Shown here piece after piece: positions 4,870 through 12,892 of a DNA stretch of 32,000 bases. The stretch is taken from positions 240,001 through 272,000 of the forward strand of contig NZ_JBHSTI010000002.1 in assembly GCF_042660085.1 (NCBI RefSeq). Direction: 5' to 3'. The stretch is from Longivirga aurantiaca (GTDB lineage: Bacteria; Actinomycetota; Actinomycetes; S36-B12; CAIYMF01). The translations under genes were made by a program, and so were the position numbers. Under the pieces are notes generated by a model. That model was not told the DNA's origin, made no database searches, and worked only from the letters and a program-made list of their open reading frames with translations. The first letter of the stretch is position 1. Each line of letters starts with the position of its first letter.

Positions 4870-5793
4870 ATGCGACCGGAGAACCTGTACGAGATCGTGA
4901 TCGACGACGTCGACGTCGAGTCGCCCGTCCTCGTGCACGCGCTCGGCGGCTTCCTCGACGCCGGGGCCGCCCGGCAGCTGGCCGTGGCGCACCTGCTCGC
5001 GACGTACGAGCACCGGACCGTGGCCGAGTTCGACATCGACGCGCTGTACGACTACCGCGCGCGCCGTCCGCGGATGATCTTCGACACCGACCACTACGAG
5101 TCGATCGACTACCCCGAGCTGCGGCTCTCGGAGCTCACCGATCAGAACGGCACCGGCTTCTTCCTGCTGCACGGCCCCGAGCCCGACTTCGGGTGGCGCT
5201 CGTTCAACGCCGCCGTGGTGCAGCTCGTCGAGAGGTACGGCGTACGCCGCTCCATCGGTCTCAACGCGATCCCCTGGGCGACTCCGCACACGCGCCCGAT
5301 CGGTGTGACCGCGCACGCGACCGATCCGTCGATCGTGATGGGACGCTCGACGTTCGTGGGTGCGATCCAGGTGCCCGGCCACCTGGCGGGTGCGCTCGAG
5401 CTCGCCATCGGCGACGCGGGGCACGAGGCCATGGGCTTCGCGGTCCACATCCCGCACTACCTCACCCAGGTCGAGTACCCGCGCGCTGCCGTGCAGCTGC
5501 TGCAGGAGGTCGCCGTAGCCGGCGATCTCGCGCTCGACTGGTCGGCGCTCGAGATCGCGGCCGACATCGCCGATCGCGAGATCAACGAGCAGGTGGCCGC
5601 GAACCCCGAGAACCTCGAGGCCGTGCACGCCCTCGAGGCGCAGTACGACGCCATGGCCCGCGGGGCGGCGACGGCGCTGCGGATGGCCGACCTCGTCGAC
5701 GACGAGGAGCTGCCGAGCGGCGACGAGATCGCCGCCCAGCTCGAGGACTTCCTCCGCGAGATGGACGAGGGCAAGCCCGAAGACCGCTCCTGA
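4870..5793 (+). CDS. PAC2-family (proteasome assembly chaperone-like) protein
   Basis: From MRPENLYEIVIDD onward the sequence is typical of actinobacterial PAC2 proteins (LVHALGGFLDAGAA, FFLLHGPEPDFGWRSF, HIPHYL). The upstream 140 aa of the track ORF are Arg-rich antisense sequence of the CPBP gene and were trimmed. Confidence 0.75.
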   Translation: MRPENLYEIVIDDVDVESPVLVHALGGFLDAGAARQLAVAHLLATYEHRTVAEFDIDALYDYRARRPRMIFDTDHYESIDYPELRLSELTDQNGTGFFLLHGPEPDFGWRSFNAAVVQLVERYGVRRSIGLNAIPWATPHTRPIGVTAHATDPSIVMGRSTFVGAIQVPGHLAGALELAIGDAGHEAMGFAVHIPHYLTQVEYPRAAVQLLQEVAVAGDLALDWSALEIAADIADREINEQVAANPENLEAVHALEAQYDAMARGAATALRMADLVDDEELPSGDEIAAQLEDFLREMDEGKPEDRS

Positions 5794-5799
5794 CCCTCG

Positions 5800-5915
5800 C
5801 TGGGGTTTGCGATGAAGGCGACCCTCATCCAATAGAGCCGAACAATCCTTCCCATCATCCGATTGCGATGACGGGGGCCTTCGTAGCTCAGAGCGCAACA
5901 AACTAGGCCTTCATC
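5800..5915 (+). repeat. Copy 1 of a ~115-bp structured repeat (inverted relative to copy 2)
   Basis: CTGGGGTTTGCGATGAAGGCGACCCTCATCCAATAGAGCCGAACAATCCTTCCCATCATCCGATTGCGATGACGGGGGCCTTCGTAGCTCAGAGCGCAACAAACTAGGCCTTCATC. It matches the reverse complement of 7261..7375 with 4 substitutions and 1 single-nt indel (hand alignment). It starts 6 nt after the PAC2 stop, and its far end encodes the last 4 codons and the stop of the MFS gene. Confidence 0.9.
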
Positions 5916-7102
5916 AGTCGACCGCGGGGGCGGGCGGCAGCGACGGCGACCGCGGTCAGCGCCACCGTCGTCACGGCCAGCGCCAGCATCGCCGCTCCCG
6001 GTCCCCCCGCGTCGACGAGCACACCGGCCAGCGCCGTGCCGAACGCCGTCCCCACGTTGAACGCCGAGTTCACCCACGACGTCGCCTCCGCGCTGGACCC
6101 TGTGACGGCATCGTCGGCGATCACGTACGACGCCACCACGGCCGGCGCGACGAACACGCCCGCCACGAGGAACGCCAGCAGCATCGGCACCAGCCAGCCC
6201 GAGACCGCCGCCGCGACCAGGACGGCCGAAGCGCTGCCGAGCACCAGCACGACCGCCTGACGCCGTACGCCGCCCGGCCACAGCCGGCGGCCGTAGAGCA
6301 GCCCGCCGCCGATGCTGCCGATCGCGATCAGCGCGGCCGGCACGCCGGCGAGCTCGGCACCGGCAAGGCGCAGCACGGCCGCCACCGCCGCGAGCTCGAG
6401 GCCACCGAGCAGCAGGCCGACCGCCGTCGCCGGCAGCAGCCCCAGCAGGAACCGCGCGCTGCGCCACGGCACGCGCGGCCGCACCGCGACGGCGTCGCCG
6501 ACGGCGTCGCGCAAGGTCCGCAGCACCACCGCCATTCCGAGGCACGCGAGGAGCAGGAGCAACGACGACGCGATCAGCACGGGCCCGGGCGCGAGGCGCG
6601 CGACGGCGACCGCCGCGATCAGCGGGCCGACGACGTACAGCACCTCCTCGGCCACGGAGTCGAGGGAGAACGCCGCCCGCAGCGACTCGGGCTCGTCGCG
6701 CGTGATGTCGCGCCAGGCCGCGCGCATCACAGGCCCGACCGGAGGCGGGAGACAGCCTGCGAGAAGTGCCGCGGCGACGAGCAGCGGCAGCGGCGCGGTC
6801 GCGAGCAGGAGCAGCAGCCCGATGCCGAGCGCGTATGCGACGGCGGCGACGACCAGCACTCGGCCATGGCCGAACCGGTCCGCGGCCCGCGCACGCAGCG
6901 GGCCGAGCAGTCCGGCGGTCAGCCCGACGGCGGCGGTGGCGGCACCGGCCTCGGCGTACGAGTCGCGGACGTCGGCGAGCAGGAGCAGCGTGACGAGCGG
7001 CAGCACGCCGTACTGCAGCCGGGCCAGCGCTGCCCACAGGGTGAGCGAAGCGGCGCTGGGCAGGCGCAGCAGGGCGAGATAGCCGCGAGGAGCGGCGGGC
7101 AT
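5903..7102 (-). CDS. MFS transporter
   Basis: About 12 hydrophobic segments and a typical MFS loop, GPLRARAADRFGHGR, between TM2 and TM3. The start is placed at the ATG of MPAAPRGYLALL; the track ORF starts 13 codons upstream. Confidence 0.8.
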   Translation of the reverse strand: MPAAPRGYLALLRLPSAASLTLWAALARLQYGVLPLVTLLLLADVRDSYAEAGAATAAVGLTAGLLGPLRARAADRFGHGRVLVVAAVAYALGIGLLLLLATAPLPLLVAAALLAGCLPPPVGPVMRAAWRDITRDEPESLRAAFSLDSVAEEVLYVVGPLIAAVAVARLAPGPVLIASSLLLLLACLGMAVVLRTLRDAVGDAVAVRPRVPWRSARFLLGLLPATAVGLLLGGLELAAVAAVLRLAGAELAGVPAALIAIGSIGGGLLYGRRLWPGGVRRQAVVLVLGSASAVLVAAAVSGWLVPMLLAFLVAGVFVAPAVVASYVIADDAVTGSSAEATSWVNSAFNVGTAFGTALAGVLVDAGGPGAAMLALAVTTVALTAVAVAAARPRGRLMKA

Positions 7103-7177
7103 GGGGACGACCTTCCGGCACGGGGCGCGACGGCACGACAACGGTGCGGACGACGAGGTCCGCGGGCTGCGTGGCGT

Positions 7178-7203
7178 CAGGTCACGGCGGGGTGCAGGTC
7201 ACG
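7178..7203. promoter_or_regulatory. Direct repeat CAGGTCACG x2 (17 nt start-to-start) in the MFS upstream region
   Basis: Identical 9-mers at 7178..7186 and 7195..7203, 76 to 101 nt upstream of the MFS start. This is a possible regulator-binding site, supported only by sequence pattern. Confidence 0.25.
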
Positions 7204-7260
7204 TCCCGACCGTAGCGCGAGATGACCGGGCACGGCAGGCGACGGCCGCGGGCCGCTGTC

Positions 7261-7375
7261 GGTGAAGGCCCAGTTTGTTGCGCTCTGAGCAACGAAGGCC
7301 CCCTTCATCGCAATCGGATGATGGGAAGGATTGTTCGGCTCTATTGGATGAGGGTCGCCTTCATCGCAAACCCAG
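7261..7375 (-). repeat. Copy 2 of the ~115-bp structured repeat
   Basis: The reverse complement aligns to 5800..5915 at roughly 96% identity by hand alignment. Read on the minus strand, it starts 5 nt after the stop (7381..7383) of the S51-like gene. This is the same orientation and position relative to an upstream stop codon as copy 1. Confidence 0.9.
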
Positions 7376-7380
7376 AGGCG

Positions 7381-8082
7381 CTAGGGGAGGGTGAGGGTGG
7401 AGCCGGCGGGGTGCTCGACGCGCTTGCCGTGGCCGAGGACCCAGACCGACTGCCGGCCCTGAACGGTCCACTCGTGCGGTCCGCCGACGAGCGCGGTGTC
7501 CTCGTCGATGCCGAGCAGTGTCACGCCGTCCGGCAGGCCGAGCAGCGCGTTGCGCAGCATGTCGGGCACCCAGGCAGCCATCTTGTCGAAGTGCGGGATC
7601 ACGCGGACGTGCGGCACGAGGCCGAGGCCCGTCGGCTGCTCGGCGCGCATCGAGCGCATCCGCGGAGCCCAGCCCGAGAGCGCCATCGCGCCGGCGCTGC
7701 ACCCAGCGATCGCCGCACCCGCCTCGTGGGCGCGCACGATCGCGTGCCACACAGCCGTCTGGCGCAGGGTCTCGGCAAGGTACGCCGGGTTGCCGCCCGA
7801 GAGGTAGATGAGGCCGGCGCCCTCGAGGAGCGCCGCCAGGGACGCGTCCTCGGCGTCCTCGCGGGTGCGGACGTCGACGACGACCTGCTCGACGCCGAGC
7901 CGCTCGGCCTGCGCCCGTCCGAGGCTGTGCCAGCGCGCGAGCGACGCGTCGCCCTCGGGCGCGGCCGCGGTGGCGAGCTGCACGTACTTCGGTGCGCGGC
8001 CCGCGATGAGCGCGCCCTCGATGTCGGTCATGACGGGCAGGTACTCGCCCGAACCGACCAGTGCGATCGGTGCCGTGCTCAT
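7381..8082 (-). CDS. Peptidase S51 / cyanophycinase-like (class I glutamine amidotransferase-like fold) protein
   Basis: A 233-aa product starting MSTAPIALVGSGEYLP. S51-type motifs are present: GSGE near the N-terminus, LIYLSGGNPAYL, the nucleophile-elbow-like IAGCSAGAMA and VIPHFD. Its ATG overlaps the upstream gene's stop (ATGA). The upstream 282 aa of the track ORF are Arg-rich shadow sequence. Confidence 0.75.
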   Translation of the reverse strand: MSTAPIALVGSGEYLPVMTDIEGALIAGRAPKYVQLATAAAPEGDASLARWHSLGRAQAERLGVEQVVVDVRTREDAEDASLAALLEGAGLIYLSGGNPAYLAETLRQTAVWHAIVRAHEAGAAIAGCSAGAMALSGWAPRMRSMRAEQPTGLGLVPHVRVIPHFDKMAAWVPDMLRNALLGLPDGVTLLGIDEDTALVGGPHEWTVQGRQSVWVLGHGKRVEHPAGSTLTLP

Positions 8083-9251
8083 CGGCGTACCTCCCACTCG
8101 ACGCCGTCGGCGGTGTCGCGCACCTCCACGCCCGCCCCGGCCAGACCGTCGCGGATCGCGTCGCTGTCGGCCCAGCGCTTCTCGGCCCGAGCCGACGTGC
8201 GGAGCGTCAGGAGCACCTCGACCAGGGGCCGCACGGTCTCCGTGACGTCGACGGGCTCGCCCACGGCAGCGGCGGTACGTGCCAGCAGCGACCGCACCAC
8301 GCTGCGCTCGTCGTCGCTCGTCGCCATCCGGTCGAGCTCGCCGACCAGGGCGATCGCGCGGGCCACGTCGCCGTCCGAGAGCGCCGCCTCGACCGTGGAC
8401 GCGTCGAGGGCGTCGGCAGCCGGAGCAGCCACGGCGACCGGTGACGGGGCGCCGGAACCTGCGCCGTGCGAGGCGATCTCGTCGATCGTCGTGGTGTCTC
8501 CGGCGTTGAGGACCCACTCGTCGCCGTGCACGCGCACGACCACCGTTCCCTTGCCCACGACCTCGCAGACCCGCGAGTCGAGGTCGATCACGAGGCCGGT
8601 GTGCTCGTCGACTCCGAGCACGAACGCATCGTCCGGCAGCTGCGCCTCGAGCGCGACGAGGCGACGCTCGCCGAGCCAGCAGAAGCGGGTGTCGTGCGTG
8701 CCGCCCTCCGCGTTGTTCCAGTGCGGTACGACGGCCGCGCGCAGACCGGTGGCACGGCCCACGACGTCGAGCCCGTCGAGCCAGCGCGGCGTCTCGCCGA
8801 CCTTGTAGATCTCGTAGACCGGGATCGTGAGCAGCCCGAGCGTGAGGGCCGCCGCGCTCGCGAACGTGACGGCGCCGCCCTCGGCGAGCCGTGCGTGCAA
8901 AGCATCCGGCACCGCGCTGCCCGCCCACGTGCGCAGCGCGTACGACGGCGAGCCCGGGCCGGCGAAGATCCAGTCGGCAGCGCGGAGCCTCGCCATCTCC
9001 TCGGCGTGCTGCACGGGGTCCGGAGCGGGTGCCGAGCGGAAGCTGACCGCCTCGACCGTGCGGCCGACGCTCTCGCGGAAGTACTGCTGGGCCTTCTCGG
9101 TGAGCTCGTCGGCGTTCTCCTGGAAGCCGTACGGCGAGTCGAGGAGGACGGCACGGACGTCGGTGCCGAGCCTGGCGAAGGTCTTCTGATGCGGGGTGAC
9201 CATCGTCGGGCTGGTCTCGCCCGAGCCGAGGATCGTCAGGACACGGGTCAC
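8079..9251 (-). CDS. S51/cyanophycinase-like paralogue fused to a C-terminal CysRS-like helical domain; function unknown
   Basis: GTG start ([16 protein letters not shown]). The N-terminal ~255 aa are paralogous to the downstream gene (GSGE, [28 protein letters not shown]). The C-terminal ~130 aa (aa 261-390) end in [36 protein letters not shown]. That closely mirrors the extreme C-terminus of class I cysteinyl-tRNA synthetases (recalled E. coli CysRS: [36 protein letters not shown]). An alternative in-frame GTG lies at 9269. Confidence 0.7.
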   Translation of the reverse strand: [390 protein letters not shown]

Positions 9252-9256
9252 CCCGC

Positions 9257-9280
9257 GATCATCGCCCACGGGCGACGATC
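9257..9280. promoter_or_regulatory. Imperfect inverted repeat immediately upstream of the S51 operon start
   Basis: GATCATCGCCC-AC-GGGCGACGATC has 11-bp arms with one mismatch and lies 6 to 29 nt upstream of the GTG at 9251. It could be an operator or a 5'-UTR hairpin. Confidence 0.25.
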
Positions 9281-9331: not shown

Positions 9332-10042
9332 TCAGGCAAGTGCGAGCGACGTGCCGGTGACGCGCATGACGTAGTCGAAGAAGGTGTCGAGGTCGTTGAT
9401 CGTGTTGGTGAACTGGCCGTCGAGCTCGAGGCTGATGTGGCCGAAGAGCTGCGTGCGGGCCATGACGCCGCCCACCAGCATGGAGTCGGGGATCTCGTAG
9501 GGCAGGAAGTCCTTGAGGCCCTGCATGGACGCGGACACGGCCTCGGGCACCTCGGTCTCCGCCGGCGCGCGGCCGGCCTGGAGGGCGTCGCCCAGCACCT
9601 GGGTCAGCGTGATCGATACCCGGGTGCCGGGGCCGATGGTGTCCTCGGGCGCCTTGTAGCCGGGCACGGGCGAGCCGTAGATGAGCGCCCATTCCTGCGG
9701 GTGGGCGAGGGCCCAGTCGCGGGTCGCATGGCAGACGGCCATCCAGCGGCCCAGGTAGTCGTCGCGCGCGAACGCCGCATCGGCCTGCTCGGCGACATCC
9801 CCGACGGCGTTGTAGGCGTCGATGATCAGCCGGGTCAGGAGGTCGTCGCGGCTGGGGAAGTAGCGGTAGATCGCGCTGCTGACCATGCCCAGCTCGCGCG
9901 CGACGGCGCGGAGGCTGAGGCCCGACGGCCCCTCGGAGACGAGCTGACGGCGCGCTGCCTCGACGATCTCGCGGGTGAGCTCGGCGCGGGCCCGGGCGCG
10001 CGCCGTACGCGGGGCTGCCTCAGGTGCTGCGGACTCGGTCAC
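9332..10042 (-). CDS. TetR/AcrR-family transcriptional regulator
   Basis: N-terminal HTH: LSLRAVARELGMVSSAIYRYFPSRDDLLTRLI. The size (236 aa) is typical, and the gene is divergent from an oxidoreductase/transporter pair. Confidence 0.9.
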   Translation of the reverse strand: MTESAAPEAAPRTARARARAELTREIVEAARRQLVSEGPSGLSLRAVARELGMVSSAIYRYFPSRDDLLTRLIIDAYNAVGDVAEQADAAFARDDYLGRWMAVCHATRDWALAHPQEWALIYGSPVPGYKAPEDTIGPGTRVSITLTQVLGDALQAGRAPAETEVPEAVSASMQGLKDFLPYEIPDSMLVGGVMARTQLFGHISLELDGQFTNTINDLDTFFDYVMRVTGTSLALA

Positions 10043-11229: not shown

Positions 11230-12468
11230 GTGTGGGAGCGTGCGGCGGTGAGCACACCGACCTCGGGCACCGGAACGGCGACACATCCGCTCGACCTGAC
11301 GCGGGCTCGTCTCGCCGTCACGGTCGCGTTCGTCGTGCAGGGCGTGTGCTTCGCCGCGCTGGTCACGCGCATCCCCACGCTGCAGTCGCGCTTCGACCTC
11401 TCCGACGGCGAGCTCGGCCTCATGGTCGGGCTCGTGCCGATCGTGGCCGGGATCGGCAGCGTGGTCGCCGGTGCGCTGTCGCCGAGGCACGGCAGCCGGA
11501 TCGTGCTCCGCGTCATGGGCCCGGTGACGCCGCTCGGTCTCGTGGTCATCGGGTTCGCGCAGAGCATCCCGATGCTCATCCTCGGCATGGTGGTCGTCGG
11601 CATCGGGCTCGGCTCGGTCGACGCCTCGATGAACATCCAGGGCGTGCGCGTGCAGGACGACCTCGGGCACAGCGTCGTCGCGTCGTACTACGCCGCGTTC
11701 AGCCTCGCCGGGCTCGTGGGCGCGGTGCTCGCCTCCTTCGCCGCCGACTCCGCCCTCTCGCTCGGCGGCTTCTTCCTCGCCATCGCGGTCGTCGTGGTCC
11801 CGTTCCAGCTGCTCGTAGGGCGCCTGCTCCTGCCCGGCCACCCGACCCCCGACGTGGTGCAGTCGGAGAAGGGCCACATCAGCTGGCGTCCGGTGATCCT
11901 GGTCGGCATCGCGCTCATGTGCGTCTACATCGCCGACTCCGGCGCCTCCAACTGGAGCGCCGTCTACCTCAACGACGGCCTCGGCAGCAGCGAGAGCACC
12001 GCCGCCCTGGCCTACGGCGTGTACGCGTTCATGACCATGGTCGGCCGCATCGTCGTCGACCGGTACGTCGACCGCATCGGCCCGGTGCCGCTCGTGCGGA
12101 TCGGTGGGTTCATCGCGGTGGCCGCAGCCCTCGCCCTCGCCGTCGCGCCGTCACCGGCGCTCGCGCTCGTCGCGTTCGGCATCCTCGGCCTCGGCATCTG
12201 CCCCGCGATCCCGCTCGCCTTCTCCGCGGCCGCCTCGCACGACAAGGCCGCGAGCGGCGTGGCCGTCGCCCGCGTCAACGTCTTCAACTACGCGGGTTTC
12301 GTGGTCGGCGCGCCGCTCATCGGTGGGATCGCCGAGGGGGTGGGCCTGCGCTGGGCGTTCGCCGCCCTCGTGCCCGTGCTGCTCGTCGTCCCGCTGCTGG
12401 CGGGCTGGTTCCGGATCGCGCCGCACGAGGCGCCCGACACCGTCGTCGACGGCGCCGTCACCGCCTGA
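11230..12468 (+). CDS. MFS transporter
   Basis: About 12 predicted TM segments and good GC3 bias. It sits downstream of the TetR-controlled candidate promoter and the epimerase-like gene. The start is ambiguous: GTG at 11230, or GTG at 11248 with GGGAG about 10 nt upstream. Confidence 0.8.
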   Translation: MWERAAVSTPTSGTGTATHPLDLTRARLAVTVAFVVQGVCFAALVTRIPTLQSRFDLSDGELGLMVGLVPIVAGIGSVVAGALSPRHGSRIVLRVMGPVTPLGLVVIGFAQSIPMLILGMVVVGIGLGSVDASMNIQGVRVQDDLGHSVVASYYAAFSLAGLVGAVLASFAADSALSLGGFFLAIAVVVVPFQLLVGRLLLPGHPTPDVVQSEKGHISWRPVILVGIALMCVYIADSGASNWSAVYLNDGLGSSESTAALAYGVYAFMTMVGRIVVDRYVDRIGPVPLVRIGGFIAVAAALALAVAPSPALALVAFGILGLGICPAIPLAFSAAASHDKAASGVAVARVNVFNYAGFVVGAPLIGGIAEGVGLRWAFAALVPVLLVVPLLAGWFRIAPHEAPDTVVDGAVTA

Positions 12469-12526
12469 GCCGACACAGCCGCGAATCGGCTGCGAGCGTC
12501 GTCGCGCGGCTGCCACCATCACGCTC

Positions 12527-12892
12527 ATGGGGATGCAGACGCAGGTGACCGAGGCCCGGCTCGTCAACTCGAGGGCGGGCCTGACGCAGCGTCGGCTGCT
12601 CGTGGCCGCCTGGGTCATGGCCGCGCTGCTCGCCGCCCTCGTCGTTGCCCTGCTGGTGCAGGGAGCGCGCCTCGCCGAGCTGGAGAGGTCCGTGCAGCAG
12701 TCGACGCAGTCCGGCGGCTTCAGCGGCAGCGACGCCTCGACCTCGATGCAGCTCGACCAGGTCTGCCGCCTGCTCGGCGCGGTGGCGCAGAAGGACGGCG
12801 TCCCTCTCGCGGCCGTGTTCGACGGAGAGACGATGTCCACCTGCGAGGCGGCAGCCGGCAAGGGCGCCTCGGCAGTCCGCGCCGCCGGCTGA
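12527..12892 (+). CDS. Hypothetical membrane-anchored protein (121 aa)
   Basis: The ATG-started part of track ORF 12104..12892 that lies beyond the MFS stop. It has a single N-terminal TM segment (LLVAAWVMAALLAALVVALLV), then a soluble tail with 2 Cys. Codon bias is coding-like, and a strong terminator follows. I did not recognise any family. Confidence 0.5.
   Translation: MGMQTQVTEARLVNSRAGLTQRRLLVAAWVMAALLAALVVALLVQGARLAELERSVQQSTQSGGFSGSDASTSMQLDQVCRLLGAVAQKDGVPLAAVFDGETMSTCEAAAGKGASAVRAAG

Follow-up and report, generated by a model that had tools for sequence, protein, structure and literature searches.

The repeat pair at the MFS locus

A 32-kb stretch of Longivirga aurantiaca DNA (contig NZ_JBHSTI010000002.1, positions 240,001 to 272,000; hereafter the window, in whose coordinates positions are given) contains a pair of inverted, nearly identical repeats that enclose a complete gene for a transporter of the MFS family. 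This gene (5903..7102, minus strand; Pfam MFS_1) lies between a PAC2-family gene on the plus strand (4870..5793; Pfam PAC2, E=3e-54) and a peptidase S51-like gene on the minus strand (7381..8082; Pfam Peptidase_S51, E=7e-15, with a weak cyanophycinase-like NCBIfam match), and one copy of the repeat follows the stop codon of each of these two neighbours. The product of the MFS gene matches a Longivirga aurantiaca protein (P0121; Sporichthyaceae, Actinomycetes) with 100% identity. The nature and origin of the repeats were investigated by comparison with related and unrelated loci.

Alignment of copy 1 (5800..5915, plus strand) with the reverse complement of copy 2 (7261..7375, minus strand) showed 4 substitutions, at 5872, 5885, 5905 and 5914, and one 1-nt indel (GGGG/GGG), reproducing exactly the near-identical inverted repeats of about 115 bp described in the original prediction. 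A repeat search of the window delimited the inverted arms at 5803-5913 and 7263-7373, 111 nt long, 97% complementary and 1349 nt apart, so that the copies can be described as composite elements of 111-115 nt with 97% identity. By blastn, one arm aligned within the window with 108/111 identities (E=2e-53), and no third copy of it was found in the 32 kb. The G+C content of the element is 55% vs 72% for the window, and the motif CCTTCATCGCAA occurs four times in the window (once with 1 mismatch), always within the two copies, against a chance expectation of 0.05.

The head of copy 1 points toward the PAC2 stop codon (TGA, 5791-5793) and begins 6 nt beyond it, and the head of copy 2 begins on the minus strand 5 nt past the S51 stop codon (TAG, read as cta, 7381-7383), in agreement with the coordinates first proposed; the distances from stop codon to hairpin are 17 and 15 nt, respectively. 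The tail of copy 2 ends 158 nt upstream of the MFS start, and that of copy 1 overlaps the end of the MFS gene, whose product terminates in GRLMKA. As had been claimed, the last four codons (LMKA) and the stop codon (5903-5905) are supplied by copy 1.

Each copy is a tandem dimer of units of ~55 nt, A and B, which are 72% alike over 39 nt at a spacing of 56 nt. Unit A of copy 1 (5811..5859, plus strand), the family core that was also found at ~30 other loci, consists of box1 GATGAAGG (5811-5818), a CGA loop (5819-5821), box2 CCCTCATC (5822-5829), the segment CAATAGAGCCGAAC (5830-5843) and a tail box3 CCCATCATC (5851-5859); the nhmmer profile of the family, described below, matched it at 5811-5858 (E=2e-16) and matched copy 2 at 7365-7318 on the minus strand (E=3e-16). 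Unit B of copy 1 (5863..5915, plus strand) is a diverged second unit, TTGCGATGACGG GGG CCTTCGT AGCTCAGAGCGCAAC AAACTAGGCCTTCATC, and it is this unit that holds the end of the MFS gene. The pair GATGAAGGC/GCCTTCATC closes the element of the window as a whole. A genome-specific 5' extension common to both arms was present in the window (CTGGGGTTTGCG) and in the related contig L103 (GTTC.GTTC), where L-numbers designate the contigs compared with the window (metagenome, Logan and genome-collection loci).

Three other candidates for the nature of these sequences were discarded. A small open reading frame (ORF), MKATFIQ, as the purpose of the element has no ribosome-binding context, and unit B is without it; a tRNA-like remnant in GTAGCTCAGAGCGC is not conserved in copy 2; and attC sites of an integron cassette would require another orientation of the repeats and R'/R'' cores, which are absent.

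A dispersed family of hairpin-forming units

A metagenome scan with the core pattern TGAAGG-N3-5-CCYTCANCCAATAGA, derived from the copies at relatives of this locus, matched 28 metagenome contigs, and a profile built from these matches yielded ~37 matches, ~30 of them distinct, over the 28 loci and the relatives of the window. The same core pattern gave no matches in viral contigs, and blastn against a plasmid collection gave no match. A second pattern, GCGATGANGG..GCGATGANGG..CCTTCA, was used on the genome collection and hit 99 loci, none of which was element-like by blastn, so these were rejected as chance matches or tandem repeats of Bacillaceae; the genome-collection match in L050 was also rejected, as it lies inside coding DNA.

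The consensus of unit A, of ~49 nt, is GATGAAGG-NNN-CCYTCATC-CAATAGAGCCG(A/T)AC-(4-9 nt)-CCYTCATC, also written as GATGAAGG-NNN-CCYTCATC-CAATAGAGCCGWAC-N-CCYTCATC. An alignment of 22 copies showed in addition (C)G or TTTGCG before GATGAAGG, and CAATAGAG after the hairpin. The internal 8-bp hairpin was 90% paired. The tail box CCnTCATC was found to be complementary to box1 GATGAAGG in 77% of cells vs 24-55% in slid controls, and since this box lay outside the search pattern, the unit has a genuine 8-bp terminal inverted repeat besides its internal hairpin. The 5' box can thus pair either with the adjacent box, forming the 8-bp hairpin, or with the terminal box, closing the whole unit. Read forward, the unit has stop codons (TGA and TAG) in two of its three frames.

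Units were detected as monomers, as A+B dimers (in the window), as long head-to-head palindromes and as units with another element, designated N, nested in the hairpin loop. Most copies are singlets; long perfect palindromes were found in L115 and L136, an adjacent inverted doublet in L119, and wider inverted pairs in L117, L124, L127 and the window. Sample-specific subfamilies could also be distinguished (CCTTCAT..CCCATCAT, CCCTCAT..CCCTCAT and GGGTCCCTTCAG..CCCTTCAT). A related yet distinct variant, TATTGGCTGAAAGCGCCCTTCAGTCGG-CTAG-CCGACTGAAGGCGCCCTTCAGCCAATAGA, is present in L114 (930-1000) and twice in L120 (2230-2295 and 3340-3411); it forms a compound palindrome with CTGAAGG/CCTTCAG arms, changed on both sides with respect to ATGAAGG/CCTTCAT.

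Filled and empty sites among relatives of the locus

The contig L140 (MFS 86%, PAC2 91.5% and S51 87% identical) keeps the order S51-MFS-PAC2 with both repeat sites empty, and the stop codons of its MFS and PAC2 genes overlap in CTAG. The same order with both sites empty was found in L142 (MFS 65%). L106 (~80% protein identity) is without MFS and has a single diverged unit 1 nt past the S51 stop, and L109 (75%) has neither MFS nor any unit; in both contigs PAC2 and S51 are directly convergent. The sites are filled in the window, L103, L146 and L147, so that presence/absence polymorphism exists at orthologous sites. Given that L140 maintains synteny with both sites empty, the two copies flanking MFS are insertions, and because L140 and L142 carry the MFS gene at this place without flanking repeats, this gene predates them. 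The mobile element of MITE/REP type (miniature inverted-repeat transposable element/repetitive extragenic palindrome) that had been among the first suggestions is supported by the multi-locus family, by the empty sites of L140 and by the 8-bp terminal inverted repeat.

In the four lineages with an inverted pair the architecture of the element differs from one lineage to another, and yet the two arms are alike in each of them. The A+B arms of the window (111 nt, 97%) correspond in L103, whose PAC2 is 92.5% identical, to arms with unit A only (47 nt, 100%); in L146 to a unit A with element N in the hairpin loop (47 nt visible before the contig end, 89%); and in L147 to a truncated A (A') plus a B with N nested in it (141 nt, 98%). 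Such matching arms are indicative of one of two processes, namely gene conversion (from arm to arm or from copies elsewhere in the genome) or insertions made repeatedly at a hot spot.

Element N is a second small palindromic element, with a terminal inverted repeat TCCCCTACCGG...CCGGTAGGGGA, that sits within the loop of the hairpin in either unit A or unit B. It was found in L146 (547-654), in L147 (45-107 and 1518-1580) and also at the unrelated locus L124 (182-236), and its copies from three different metagenomes share 100% identity over 50-63 nt. In L142, the spacer between S51 and MFS contains an unrelated long palindrome, GGGTTGGGGGTCCGATCGCGC...GCGATCCGACCCCCAAC, twice in tandem (9790-9960), suggesting that differing lineages hold differing REP-like families at this spot.

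Position and orientation with respect to stop codons

The ORFs upstream of the copies were assessed with a codon-model frame classifier and verified with Pfam. The co-oriented upstream genes correspond to HisA, GATase, HisE, AsnC, MoeA, a 4Fe-4S (Fer4) protein, DUF6104, OsmC, the ribosomal protein L33 (rpmG), CinA, SHOCT, APH and NAT (arylamine N-acetyltransferase). The distance between the stop codon and the first base of the hairpin ranged from -33 to +85 nt across the family and was mostly of 17 nt or less, a recurrence that supports the original prediction that the position behind stop codons is meaningful. A co-oriented gene ends next to the head in ~17 copies, and a gene on the opposite strand lies there in ~7, the remainder being without a clear call, and all five singletons located between co-directional genes (5/5) are oriented as those genes.

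In several cases the element forms part of the gene. The TGA within its GA-TGA-AGG is the stop codon of the gene in L119 (CinA), L133 (Fer4 protein) and L134 (an ORF), and the C-terminus DEGDPHPIEP of the NAT gene of L127, with its stop, is read out of the element. At the other end, convergent genes that enter the tail finish in MK(G)A followed by a stop, as detected for the window MFS gene and for a 333-aa ORF in L117. Inverted pairs with their tails inward were also found around a DLH gene (L124), a 77-aa PLDc_N gene (L127) and the unknown 333-aa gene (L117). The five independent inverted pairs all have the same relative orientation, which is the basis of a reading through RNA duplexes that is considered below.

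Proposed origin of the pair

We consider it probable that both repeats belong to a hitherto undescribed family of dispersed repeats, small, non-coding and able to form hairpins, which is similar to REPs and their mosaic clusters (bacterial interspersed mosaic elements, BIMEs) or to MITEs and is present in Longivirga aurantiaca and in related actinobacteria of Sporichthyales-like type, most of them uncultured. The family is multi-copy, occupies unrelated housekeeping contexts, is polymorphic for insertion and is placed overwhelmingly at the stop of a co-oriented upstream gene. The bracketing of the MFS gene is best read as a by-product of this distribution, with arms kept alike by concerted evolution.

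According to this explanation, the elements would spread in trans through a transposase encoded elsewhere, for which the candidates may be a single-strand type that recognises hairpins (IS200-like or REP-associated tyrosine transposase, RAYT) or a type that recognises terminal inverted repeats. Survival or targeting would be limited to insertions at gene ends, where, because TGA and TAG lie in two of its forward frames, the unit could cap a gene that it clips. PAC2 and S51 would each have gained a copy at the stop codon, leaving MFS bracketed, and the arms would then have been homogenised in each lineage by gene conversion, mutual or with other genomic copies. Putative effects at the RNA level, such as stabilisation by a 3'-end hairpin or interference with termination, would be secondary.

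Several observations weigh against this explanation. The fixed search pattern makes the conservation of box1, box2 and CCAATAGA partly an effect of ascertainment. The copies counted in the Longivirga genome are the two of the 32-kb window, and among the fetched loci unit B was found only in the Logan contig L100 of the same organism, besides a B-like unit with a nested insert in L147. The Pfam scan of window genes revealed neither a transposase nor a RAYT partner, and no consistent direct repeat was detected at the junctions of the 22 copies as a target-site duplication, though there may be a 2-bp CG duplication. Finally, the filling of the same two sites by differing variants in four lineages would need either concerted evolution or a strong target specificity. 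An autonomous insertion sequence (IS) with matching ends was likewise not seen in the fetched loci.

Alternative explanations

A dedicated structured RNA and inversion of the enclosed segment are both unsupported by the results that follow. A search of the window against Rfam gave no match at the gathering score and only chance-level matches at E up to 10, among them a weak one to the C/D-box RNA sR14 (11.7 bits vs a gathering score of 38), which was discarded as chance; scans of 12 other loci gave no Rfam match overlapping the elements. The clean match to a known Rfam family that would have removed the novelty of the element was not obtained. Unrelated Rfam matches to the Ms_IGR-5 sRNA (76 and 74 bits) and to the c-di-AMP riboswitch (54 bits) were obtained in related loci (L103 6996-7195, L106 2091-2300 and L113 1722-1895).

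No terminator-like site was detected between 5500 and 7700, the hairpin being followed by CAAUAGAG and not by a U tract, and no promoter or terminator consensus was found. The search for covariation that had been proposed gave no compensatory changes in the hairpin, this being a weak test because box1 was fixed by the search pattern, and the fold energies of whole elements were not better, or only marginally better, than those of shuffled sequences (z = -0.06, -0.88, -0.5 and -1.7). Together with the lack of Rfam matches, these data give no support to the RNA derived from a 3' untranslated region (3'-UTR) that the original prediction had listed. Its observation on wobble pairs fared better in part: A.C mismatches on one strand that become G.U pairs on the other recur in 7/22 copies, so the asymmetry itself stands, but the G.U strand is antisense to the upstream gene. 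For this reason the asymmetry would argue against a simple 3'-UTR RNA, although it could also be neutral.

With these results in mind, it is rather unlikely, albeit compatible with the dispersed-repeat explanation, that the elements are primarily functional RNA modules of 3' ends, acting as terminators without a U tract, as blocks to 3'-5' exonucleases or by stalling terminating ribosomes, with the spread of the family being secondary or its copies exapted. The strong bias in position and orientation, with most clear upstream stops within 17 nt, the co-orientation of the 5/5 singletons between co-directional genes and the retention in L106 of a diverged unit behind S51 at ~80% protein identity speak for such a module. 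According to Liang and Deutscher, REPs located within ~15 nt of a stop codon reportedly lower expression in E. coli. In Proteobacteria, flanking ORFs are documented to take their stop codons from REP termini (PMC3733652). Against it stand the G.U-versus-A.C asymmetry, which favours the strand antisense to the upstream gene, the lack of U tract and covariation, the fold energies only marginally below shuffles and the opposite-strand gene upstream of about a quarter of the copies.

Another proposal, decidedly doubtful, is that the family is a mobile "gene-end module" that seeks stop codons, would insert in a fixed orientation at most a few nucleotides away from them and brings a hairpin as well as its own TGA and TAG in two frames, and that the arms of the pairs are co-maintained through a duplex in read-through RNA. 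Such a duplex would be processed, e.g., by RNase III, insulating the enclosed gene from the operon.

It is very unlikely that the elements are protein-binding DNA sites, with a dimeric regulator or a nucleoid-associated protein using the 7-3-7 palindrome (ATGAAGG-NNN-CCTTCAT) and the invariant CAATAGAGCC as its operators. The arms are conserved in sequence and not by covariation, the geometry is typical of operators and each element holds the motif two to three times, but the copies are located at the 3' ends of functionally unrelated genes and not at promoters, much of the apparent invariance is imposed by the search pattern, and mobile DNA accounts better for the polymorphic insertions, the nesting and the subfamilies specific to lineages.

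A genetic switch in which the 111-nt arms mediate inversion of the 1.35-kb MFS segment is highly improbable; the original prediction had contemplated such an inversion. Near-identical inverted repeats do enclose a complete gene with its 158-bp upstream region, and arms that stay alike in four lineages despite their changing architecture are what recurrent arm exchange would give. However, MFS is co-oriented with S51 and convergent with PAC2 in 6/6 lineages, and no invertase or recombinase was found among the window genes scanned against Pfam. Moreover, inversion would not switch expression, since a promoter-like conserved region lies inside the segment, and the similar pairs around unrelated genes in L117, L124 and L127 suggest that pairing is a property of the family and not of this locus. 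Short-read assemblies break within the arms (Logan contigs L100, L101, L102 and L105, from this organism and its relative, terminate there), but such breaks are expected of any inverted repeat longer than k; the element does fragment short-read assemblies. Look-ups of the exact MFS and S51 proteins led only to short Logan contigs of this kind, which are uninformative as to copy number and inversion, and those of PAC2 and the aldehyde dehydrogenase had no entry on record.

Finally, insertion of a composite repeat-MFS-repeat unit between PAC2 and S51 is hardly credible: PAC2 and S51 are convergent without MFS in L106 and L109, and MFS is mosaic or replaced in some lineages (64% in L103, centre below 50% nucleotide identity in L147), but L140 and L142 have MFS in place without flanking repeats, the divergence breakpoint of L103 lies near the MFS start and not at copy 2 (upstream region 92% identical), and the MFS homologues found elsewhere are all at this locus.

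Other features of the locus and its surroundings

The window is ordinary chromosome, with genes for an aldehyde dehydrogenase, a TetR regulator, a DEAD-box helicase, a glycosyltransferase, a nucleotidyltransferase, a phosphate ABC transporter, a polyphosphate kinase and a GlnR-like regulator; among its genes scanned against Pfam there is none for a transposase, a recombinase or an invertase. A gene of 396 aa on the minus strand (8079-9269) overlaps the start of S51 by ATGA and is conserved in all relatives. Its sole Pfam match is a C-terminal CysS_C anticodon-binding-like domain, accompanied by a weak cyanophycinase-like stretch (NCBIfam), and it is not recognisable as MshC or CysS.

Upstream of MFS, on the minus strand, a conserved block (7175-7219, GCGCTACGGTCGGGACGTGACCTGCACCCCGCCGTGACCTGACG) is present in all six lineages, those without repeats included. 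It holds two copies of the direct repeat CGTGACCTG and a TANNNT-like TACGGT, and is probably the promoter/operator of MFS, located within the bracketed segment. The MFS ORF itself is mosaic. The MFS protein of L103 shows 64% identity, yet the flanking PAC2 shows 92.5% and the upstream region 92%, and in L147 the central ~450 nt of MFS are less than 50% identical with flanks at ~93%; these profiles suggest allelic replacement or recombination inside the gene.

In L103, an ORF fragment ending in HYNHRRRHTALGGKPPISRVTNVTAEYT and a stop (12446-12569) adjoins TAG/CTAG at the place where S51 ends in the window. This 40-aa fragment, on which no Pfam match was obtained, we take to be the C-terminus of an IS481-like transposase, and it would fit an IS insertion at CTAG. 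The fragment abuts copy 2, and its ends are unrelated to the repeat family.

Comparison with known systems

The elements described here add a palindromic mobile-repeat family in the poorly studied Sporichthyales and their uncultured relatives, not found in Rfam or in the literature searched, to a kind of element characterised mostly in Proteobacteria. Their ties to stop codons, the rewriting of C-termini, the nesting in loops and the breaks in assemblies matter for the annotation of gene ends, for the assembly of metagenome-assembled genomes and for strain typing, and the matched arms in four lineages are a clear-cut case, provided by nature, of dispersed repeats evolving in concert. The finding reveals no new regulatory RNA or DNA switch. 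If a cognate hairpin-binding transposase exists, the family might represent a REPIN/RAYT-like system in Actinomycetota, of which no report was found in the literature checked.

MIRUs (mycobacterial interspersed repetitive units) are actinobacterial intergenic repeats of 40-100 bp located in operons, whose ends overlap the flanking stop and start codons. The present family is likewise an actinobacterial intergenic repeat that overlaps gene ends, but MIRUs are direct tandem repeats with small ORFs and are not palindromic, whereas the units found here form hairpins and often inverted pairs; no sequence similarity between both was recognised, by eye only. As in invertible switches (fim, hin, shufflons), inverted repeats flank a functional segment, but here no recombinase was found among the Pfam-scanned window genes, a single orientation was seen, and the arms are members of a family of dispersed repeats.

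The resemblance to bacterial MITEs (Correia/CREE of Neisseria, RUP, Nezha, ERIC) is closer. Like these, the elements are non-coding, of 49-170 nt, with terminal inverted repeats of 8-10 bp, show presence/absence polymorphism and nesting, have a G+C content below that of the host and donate stop codons or C-terminal residues. Unlike them, they have no visible target-site duplication and no parent IS with matching ends in the fetched loci, and their bias in orientation and position with respect to stop codons is much tighter than usual.

Proteobacterial REP, BIME and REPIN sequences share with the family the character of short, imperfect, multi-copy extragenic palindromes with a genome- or lineage-specific sequence, which stand alone, in inverted doublets or in mosaic clusters, in many cases directly behind a stop codon or overlapping one, and with no evident target-site duplication. 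REPIN doublets are documented (PMC3116915), and REPs have been proposed to be homogenised by gene conversion (PMC3116915, PMC3733652, PMC2817692). In contrast to REPs, no conserved GTAG or CGTC tag accompanies the palindrome in the 22-copy alignment, the unit is longer (~49 nt) and has a three-box design in which one 5' box has two alternative 3' partners, the host phylum is Actinomycetota, and the Pfam scan of window genes revealed no RAYT. In the REP survey checked (PMC3733652), none of the actinobacterial names looked for occurs. Membership in the REP/RAYT group is not established, because the GTAG/CGTC tag is missing and the search for a RAYT covered window genes only. The elements also fall short of classical MITEs, as they have the terminal inverted repeat but neither a target-site duplication nor a parent IS was found. 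Small palindromic dispersed repeats are a known class, and the elements are accordingly filed there as a new family.

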